A DNA stretch of 35,772 bases. Origin: a phage. Below, piece by piece: positions 3,001 through 3,953 of the stretch. A program made the translations under genes and the position numbers. The stretch lies in the NCBI GenBank assembly GCA_019566835.1, contig GCA_019566835.1_3045.2. One strand, written 5' to 3'. The notes beneath the pieces were generated by a model that did no database searches, was not told the origin of the DNA, and saw only the letters and a list, made by a program, of their open reading frames with translations. Every line of letters begins with the position of its first letter. The stretch's first letter is position 1.

Positions 3001-3953
3001 GAAAAACGAAGCGTTTTGTTGCTGAATCTGAAATAGCTGTTAATAATCAAACTGGATTACGTATTACGAGTAACGGTGATAAATCTGGTTCAAATTCAGT
3101 ATTATTCAGAAATGATGGCGGTAGTTTTTATATTCTTTTAACAGATAAAAACGCAGCAGATGGAAATACGACTGCTACAGAAGGAGATTGGAATGGTAAA
3201 CGTCCTTTCCAAATTAATATGACTTCTGGTGAAGTAACATTTGGAAATAATATTAATATTTCTGGAAACGGAAGCATTAATTGGACAAAAGCCGGAGCAA
3301 ACCCTAGAAATATGAGAATATTTCATGCAGGTGATGCTTCTCGTGGTAACCGTATTGAAATCGCAGATGATACTAACTATATTGCTTACTTTGAAAAAAC
3401 TCCAGGTGGAGCTAACCGCTTTGTAGTAAATAATGCTACTGTAGCTGGTGTTAATCAAATGAATTCATTTGGTATTAACATCAATAACGCGCTTGGTGGA
3501 AATAGTATAACATTTGGTGATAGCGATACTGGTATTAAGCAAAATGGCGATGGATTATTAGACATATATGCGAACAACGTACAAGTATTCCGTTTCCAAA
3601 ACGGTGATTTGTACTCATACAAAAATATAAATGCTCCAAACGTTTATATTCGTTCTGATATTCGTTTAAAATCCAACTTCAAACCTATCGAAAATGCGCT
3701 TGATAAAGTTGAAAAACTTAACGGTGTCATTTACGATAAAGCTGAATATATCGGTGGAGAGGCAATTGAAACTGAAGCGGGTATTGTGGCTCAAACGTTA
3801 CAAGACGTTTTACCAGAAGCTGTCCGTGAAACAGAAGACAGTAAGGGTAATAAAATACTCACTGTTTCTTCTCAAGCCCAGATTGCTCTTCTGGTTGAAG
3901 CTGTGAAAACACTTTCTGCTCGTGTAAAAGAACTTGAATCTAAACTTATGTAA
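90..3953 (+). CDS. 37: Long tail fibre distal subunit gp37, T2-type with C-terminal intramolecular chaperone module
   Basis: 1287-aa ORF. N-terminus [13 protein letters not shown]...[27 protein letters not shown] and internal blocks [33 protein letters not shown] and KQRYVQ match the gp37 signature I recall from T4. Last ~99 aa (SDIRLKSNF...GVIYD...) resemble a self-cleaving fibre chaperone domain. Confidence 0.93.
   Translation: [1287 protein letters not shown]

Follow-up and report, generated by a model that had tools for sequence, protein, structure and literature searches.

What happens to the last residues of gp37 in this phage, and does the end of its long tail fibre recognize the host in the manner of T2 or of T4? 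We addressed this in a window of 35,772 nucleotides of phage DNA, where an open reading frame on the plus strand (90..3953) encodes a protein of 1287 amino acids and 137.9 kDa. Because this protein matches PHROG 1699, "long tail fiber protein distal subunit", from end to end (E=0), we identify the gene as gene 37 of a T-even phage, coding for the precursor of the long tail fibre distal subunit. The codon of Ser1189 begins at nt 3654, and the remainder of the gene (3654..3953) amounts to exactly 99 residues and a stop codon.

These residues form a module at the extreme C-terminus, the last 99 of the 1287 amino acids of the distal subunit protein. An earlier note on this DNA had described the final ~99 residues of gp37 as starting with SDIRLKSN and containing GVIYD, and translation of 3654-3953 bears out both the description and the coordinates: SDIRLKSN, GVIYD and a final ESKLM are all found there. 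The note had also described a terminal coiled coil, which is borne out at the sequence level, since aa 1265-1286 (3882..3947, plus strand) make up three clean heptads. They run uninterrupted through the final 22 residues of this stretch of gp37, with I1265, V1272, V1279 and L1286 at the a positions and L1268, L1275 and L1282 at the d positions, and we predict that this heptad-repeat helix forms a trimeric coiled coil. A low-confidence, monomeric AlphaFold2 model, built from the single sequence of the last 119 aa (pLDDT 59.8, pTM 0.44) and too poor to establish the fold, also places a helix at 1262-1286. ICA domains carry a C-terminal triple coiled coil (PMC8326128), to which the helix at 1265-1286 of gp37 corresponds.

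The C-terminal module of gp37 is a genuine intramolecular chaperone (IMC) of the S74 family. PF13884 (Peptidase_S74, "Chaperone of endosialidase") matches aa 1189-1246 (3654..3827, plus strand), the core of the chaperone that contains Ser1189 and Lys1194, over profile positions 1-58 of 58, with a score of 56.5 bits (curated cut-off, 22) and an E-value of 3.5e-15 for the whole of gp37 or 9.6e-17 for the C-terminal 119 aa alone. The earlier note had likened the module to the chaperone domains of endosialidases and had named a profile search beforehand as the refuting test; what this search returned is a strong, full-length match that begins exactly at Ser1189. Among solved structures, the best match to the module when searched as a single sequence is the tip and chaperone of S16 gp37 (6F45_A, E 7.7e-13), and the autocleavage domain of MYRF comes next (7DC3, E 0.001). 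When nine diverse phage homologues are combined into a profile and searched against the PDB at E<=0.01, these matches improve to E 6.2e-22 and 2.2e-12, respectively, and a phage tail fibre (8JOV) and the IMC of the GA-1 neck appendage (3GUD) are added; endoNF (3GW6) and T5 (4UW8) were not recovered at this threshold. Matches to influenza haemagglutinin HA2 (E about 0.1) were dismissed as non-significant. By tblastn, the module is found in 1745 of 50,697 phage records; the annotations of almost all the matches listed name tail-fibre proteins or relatives of these in the tail, the T5-type L-shaped fibre pb1 among them.

The residues expected of a self-cleaving member of this family are in place. 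A Ser-x4-Lys dyad is present as S1189 and K1194, aligned with S587/K592 of MYRF and with the SDRRIK of S16; the crystallized MYRF construct (7DC3) is the S587A form, so that S1189 aligns with A587. Ser1189 further aligns with the first position of PF13884 and with the Ser that follows the cut in S16, DLNVS^SDRRIKK. In an alignment of nine diverse phage homologues with 33-51% identity (from Tequatrovirus, Aeromonas, Yersinia, T5-like, Corynebacterium, Synechococcus, Pelagibacter and Rhizobium phages), S1189, D1190 and K1194 are invariant, as are the G, A-Q and P-E-x-V of the AGIVAQ…LPEAV motif. In S16, the last 113 residues of gp37 constitute the IMC, whose autocleavage exposes a docking surface for gp38 (PMC7917993). 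The homologous site reads DVYIR^SDGRLK in T2-like Yersinia (fPS) phages (PMC7917993) and NVYIR^SDIRLK at the corresponding position in this phage.

By homology, we predict that gp37 is cleaved, that the cleavage is autocatalytic, that it falls at Arg1188/Ser1189 (3651..3656, plus strand), with the scissile bond between nt 3653 and 3654, and that gp38 then docks. In the scheme that we propose, gp37 would be made as a 1287-aa precursor whose last 99 residues act as a C-terminal intramolecular chaperone. By analogy with endoNF, T5 pb1, S16 gp37 and MYRF, three such modules would trimerize through the C-terminal coiled coil, and the trimerized modules would nucleate folding of the upstream fibre from its C-terminal end. 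Correct folding of the trimer would position the Ser1189-Lys1194 dyad, leading to cleavage of the Arg1188-Ser1189 bond. A fragment of 99 aa and 10.8 kDa (3654..3950, plus strand) would then leave, and a mature fibre protein of 127.1 kDa, predicted to end at Arg1188, would offer its tip to gp38.

The chaperone could be genuine and yet be removed in another way, either by a host or phage protease or by a cut some 20 residues upstream of Ser1189. The original work on T2 is older than the concept of autoproteolysis, and Drexler et al. in 1986 reportedly estimated a loss of about 120 residues from T2 gp37, which is somewhat above the 99 predicted here, although the two values agree within the error of a gel-based estimate. 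We nevertheless consider another agent or another site very unlikely, given that the Ser-x4-Lys dyad is intact in this phage and invariant across the family. It is with this dyad that the family cuts (S911/K916 in endosialidase, S587/K592 in MYRF); cleavage is lost once either residue is mutated (PMC8326128; PMC3742443), as seen in endoNF and MYRF (PMC8326128). The position of the cut points the same way, as S16 gp37 is cleaved exactly before the homologous Ser (PMC7917993).

Phage T2 carries this module too. Amino acids 1243-1341 of T2 gp37 (X04442 / AP018813) form a 99-aa module that is 100% identical in protein, and in the same scan T2 gp37 gives the same PF13884 match with the same score at aa 1243-1300. 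Over the 360 nt that cover the module (3594-3953), DNA identity is 99.2% to gene 37 of T2 and 97.2% to K3, and the last ~150 residues of gp37 differ from those of T2 at one residue. The module itself holds three nucleotide differences from T2, all of them synonymous third-position changes, which indicates purifying selection. A 70-aa open reading frame in the +2 frame (3694..3906, plus strand) lies wholly within the IMC coding sequence; because the gp37 frame is strongly supported and reads each of the three T2 differences as synonymous, we set this smaller frame aside as probably spurious. The two proteins part company further upstream: T2 gp37 has 1341 aa against 1287 here, and DNA identity drops to 47-75% upstream of nt 3480. 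For T2 and T6, PMC3157838, which cites Drexler, Riede & Henning (1986, J Mol Biol 191:267), reports that a proteolytic cut at the C-terminus of gp37 precedes its capping by gp38. Our literature search found no newer mass-spectrometric mapping of the C-terminus of a T2-type gp37.

Gene 38 (3984..4661, plus strand), which follows gene 37 as a T2-type gene 38 does in T2, encodes a tail-fibre adhesin of the T2/S16 type. Its product of 225 aa matches PF21721 (Gp38_N) at aa 1-42 (E 5.7e-18) and PF05268 (GP38, E 1.8e-59), and aligns with S16 gp38 (6F45_D, E 1.7e-41) through a region that takes in the Trp-containing segment at the N-terminus as well as the glycine-rich motifs, the latter being visible in the translation. 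In phage T4 the genes likewise run 37-38-t, and the N-terminal shaft of its gp37 is homologous, with Gp34_trimer-like domains in both phages, but T4 gp38 is annotated as an assembly factor and is unrelated to the T2 adhesin (PMC3157838). In the same scan, T4 gp37 gave no PF13884 match and instead showed PF07484 and PF03335 (Collar / Phage_fiber), while T4 gp38 gave no Pfam match and is thus without PF05268 and PF21721. The earlier note had assigned the locus to the T2 type rather than the T4 type, and this assignment stands: a PF13884-bearing gp37 next to a PF05268/PF21721-bearing gp38 is the pattern found both here and in T2, and it is absent from gp37 and gp38 of T4. With 225 aa, the adhesin is shorter than that of T2 (262 aa) or S16 (249 aa), and its glycine-rich receptor-binding part has strongly diverged from that of T2. 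On the strength of this sequence comparison, its receptor specificity may differ from that of characterised phages. In the gp37 shaft (90-3480), two stretches match Gp34_trimer (PF21446), the best of them at aa 507-633.

Between the shaft and the predicted cut, roughly aa 1131-1188 (3480..3653, plus strand) would form the distal tip of the mature protein, which ends in NAPNVYIR. It is homologous to S16 6F45_A, with which it aligns from about aa 1131 onward, and from nt 3480 on its DNA is 90-100% identical to that of T2. From S16, as described in PMC7917993, we infer that this tip is the docking surface for gp38. The geometry of such a docking tip is ambiguous, because the last mature residues, NVYIR, are aligned by HMMER to the S16 segment AIYCR and in the published alignment to DLNVS (PMC7917993), and S16 has about 14 extra residues there.

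Could the module instead be an IMC that does not cleave, or has decayed, and that remains part of the mature fibre, with gp38 binding elsewhere or acting only in assembly, as it does in T4? We regard this as exceedingly improbable. The catalytic residues are conserved, the protein is identical to that of T2, where processing is reported (PMC3157838), and the exclusively synonymous differences from T2 speak for purifying selection on the module. Moreover, this phage has an adhesin-type gp38 that carries the N-terminal attachment domain, whereas T4-type gp38 is without such a Pfam match. That a helix-rich tail resembles S74 chaperones simply by chance or through its composition has a negligible probability and is refuted by the full-length Pfam match (E 1e-15 to 1e-17), by the 1745 phage records matched by tblastn, nearly all of which, among those listed, are tail-fibre or related tail proteins, and by a profile search that matches solved IMC-containing structures.

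Autocleavage at Arg1188-Ser1189, which would release the 10.8-kDa fragment and expose the docking tip for gp38, is thus supported by the PF13884 match, the dyad, the protein identity with T2, the processing reported for T2 and the adhesin-type gp38. Taking these lines of evidence together, we are highly confident that gp37 is a 1287-aa precursor with a self-cleaving S74 chaperone and that receptor recognition is of the T2/S16 type; the poor structure model, the missing match to endoNF and the ambiguous alignment of the tip leave this main result untouched. Self-removing modules of this kind were already known from T2-type phages; the one here is not new, because T2 has a module of identical protein sequence and structural work on S16, endoNF, T5 and MYRF has established the mechanism.

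Of these systems, S16 (PDB 6F45) is homologous in both partners, the gp37 tip with its IMC and gp38. Its S^SDRRIKK corresponds to R^SDIRLKS here, and its gp38 has a similar Trp-rich N-terminal attachment domain and polyglycine motifs. The S16 IMC differs in having 113 residues rather than 99, its tip has about 14 more residues before the cut, and the residue that precedes the cut is Ser rather than Arg. EndoNF (from phage K1F), T5 pb1 and the GA-1 neck appendage belong to the same PF13884 / MEROPS S74 family, their domains open with the same Ser-Lys dyad, and their chaperones likewise stand C-terminal to a trimeric fibre or spike and contain a C-terminal coiled coil of the kind predicted here (PMC8326128, PMC7289586). 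The upstream cargo is different: here it would be a T-even tip that is later capped by a separate adhesin, there it is a sialidase or a tip that binds the receptor directly. T5-like pb1 shares only about 30-40% sequence identity with the module. The ICA domain of MYRF (7DC3) is homologous as well, with S1189/K1194 aligned with S587/K592 (PMC8326128), but it serves to free a transcription factor from the ER membrane and not to mature a virion fibre.

The module is part of a longer, sharply bounded block of conserved DNA (nt ~3480-4080). Over most of this block, identity to T2 is 97-100%, with 90-92% in its two edge bins. On either side of the block, identity to T2 falls to 47-70%, and the gp37 shaft (90-3480) is a mosaic relative to T2, with blocks of 68-75% DNA identity and with a gap near nt 1963-2109. 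The conserved block is made up of the gp37 tip, the chaperone, an intergenic hairpin and the attachment domain of gp38, parts that need to fit one another. To judge from these identities, it resembles a conserved joint that links two variable regions, each of which can be swapped without the other. Over its whole length, the 37-38 locus has no match above about 92% among the records of the phage collection; it would therefore combine shaft and adhesin specificity in a new mosaic built on a standard, conserved joint.

The hairpin (AGAGGGC-UUCG-GCCCUCU; 3955..3972, plus strand) lies between the stop codon of gp37 and the start codon of gp38 and is shared with T2, where record X04442 annotates it as a potential terminator overlapping the ribosome binding site of g38. 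It combines a perfect 7-bp stem with a UUCG loop and folds at -13.4 kcal/mol, for a z-score against shuffled sequences of only -1.6. Given its position, it could modulate the translation of gp38 or the stoichiometry of gp37 and gp38.

One might go further and suppose that the DNA of the block is itself conserved to serve as a recombination handle, which would allow T-even phages to swap the shaft and the specificity of gp38 independently. We think this rather unlikely. If it were true, the IMC coding sequence would be under selection beyond the function of its protein. The idea of a handle is essentially already present in the literature on T-even tail-fibre mosaicism, and only DNA-level selection beyond protein constraint would be new in it.

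For the locus as a whole, the main value of these findings lies in annotation and engineering, and they open no new biological question. Under the T2/S16 mode of recognition, host range would be set by gp38 and not by the gp37 tip. Recombinant fibres and host-range swaps would have to retain the 99-aa chaperone together with the conserved interface between the tip and the N-terminus of gp38.

Beyond the fibre genes, 4694-9682 follows the usual T-even order, with the holin gene t (PF11031) after gene 38. On the minus strand beyond t lie small early genes, MotA (7444-8079) and the medium subunit of the topoisomerase (8354-9682). No tRNA genes were found anywhere within the window. A single open reading frame of 605 aa on the minus strand (16232-18052) carries HATPase_c, DNA_gyraseB and TOPRIM_C domains. 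In T4, the large subunit of the topoisomerase is split into genes 39 and 60; relative to that arrangement, this phage would have the unsplit form, without the translational bypass of gene 60.
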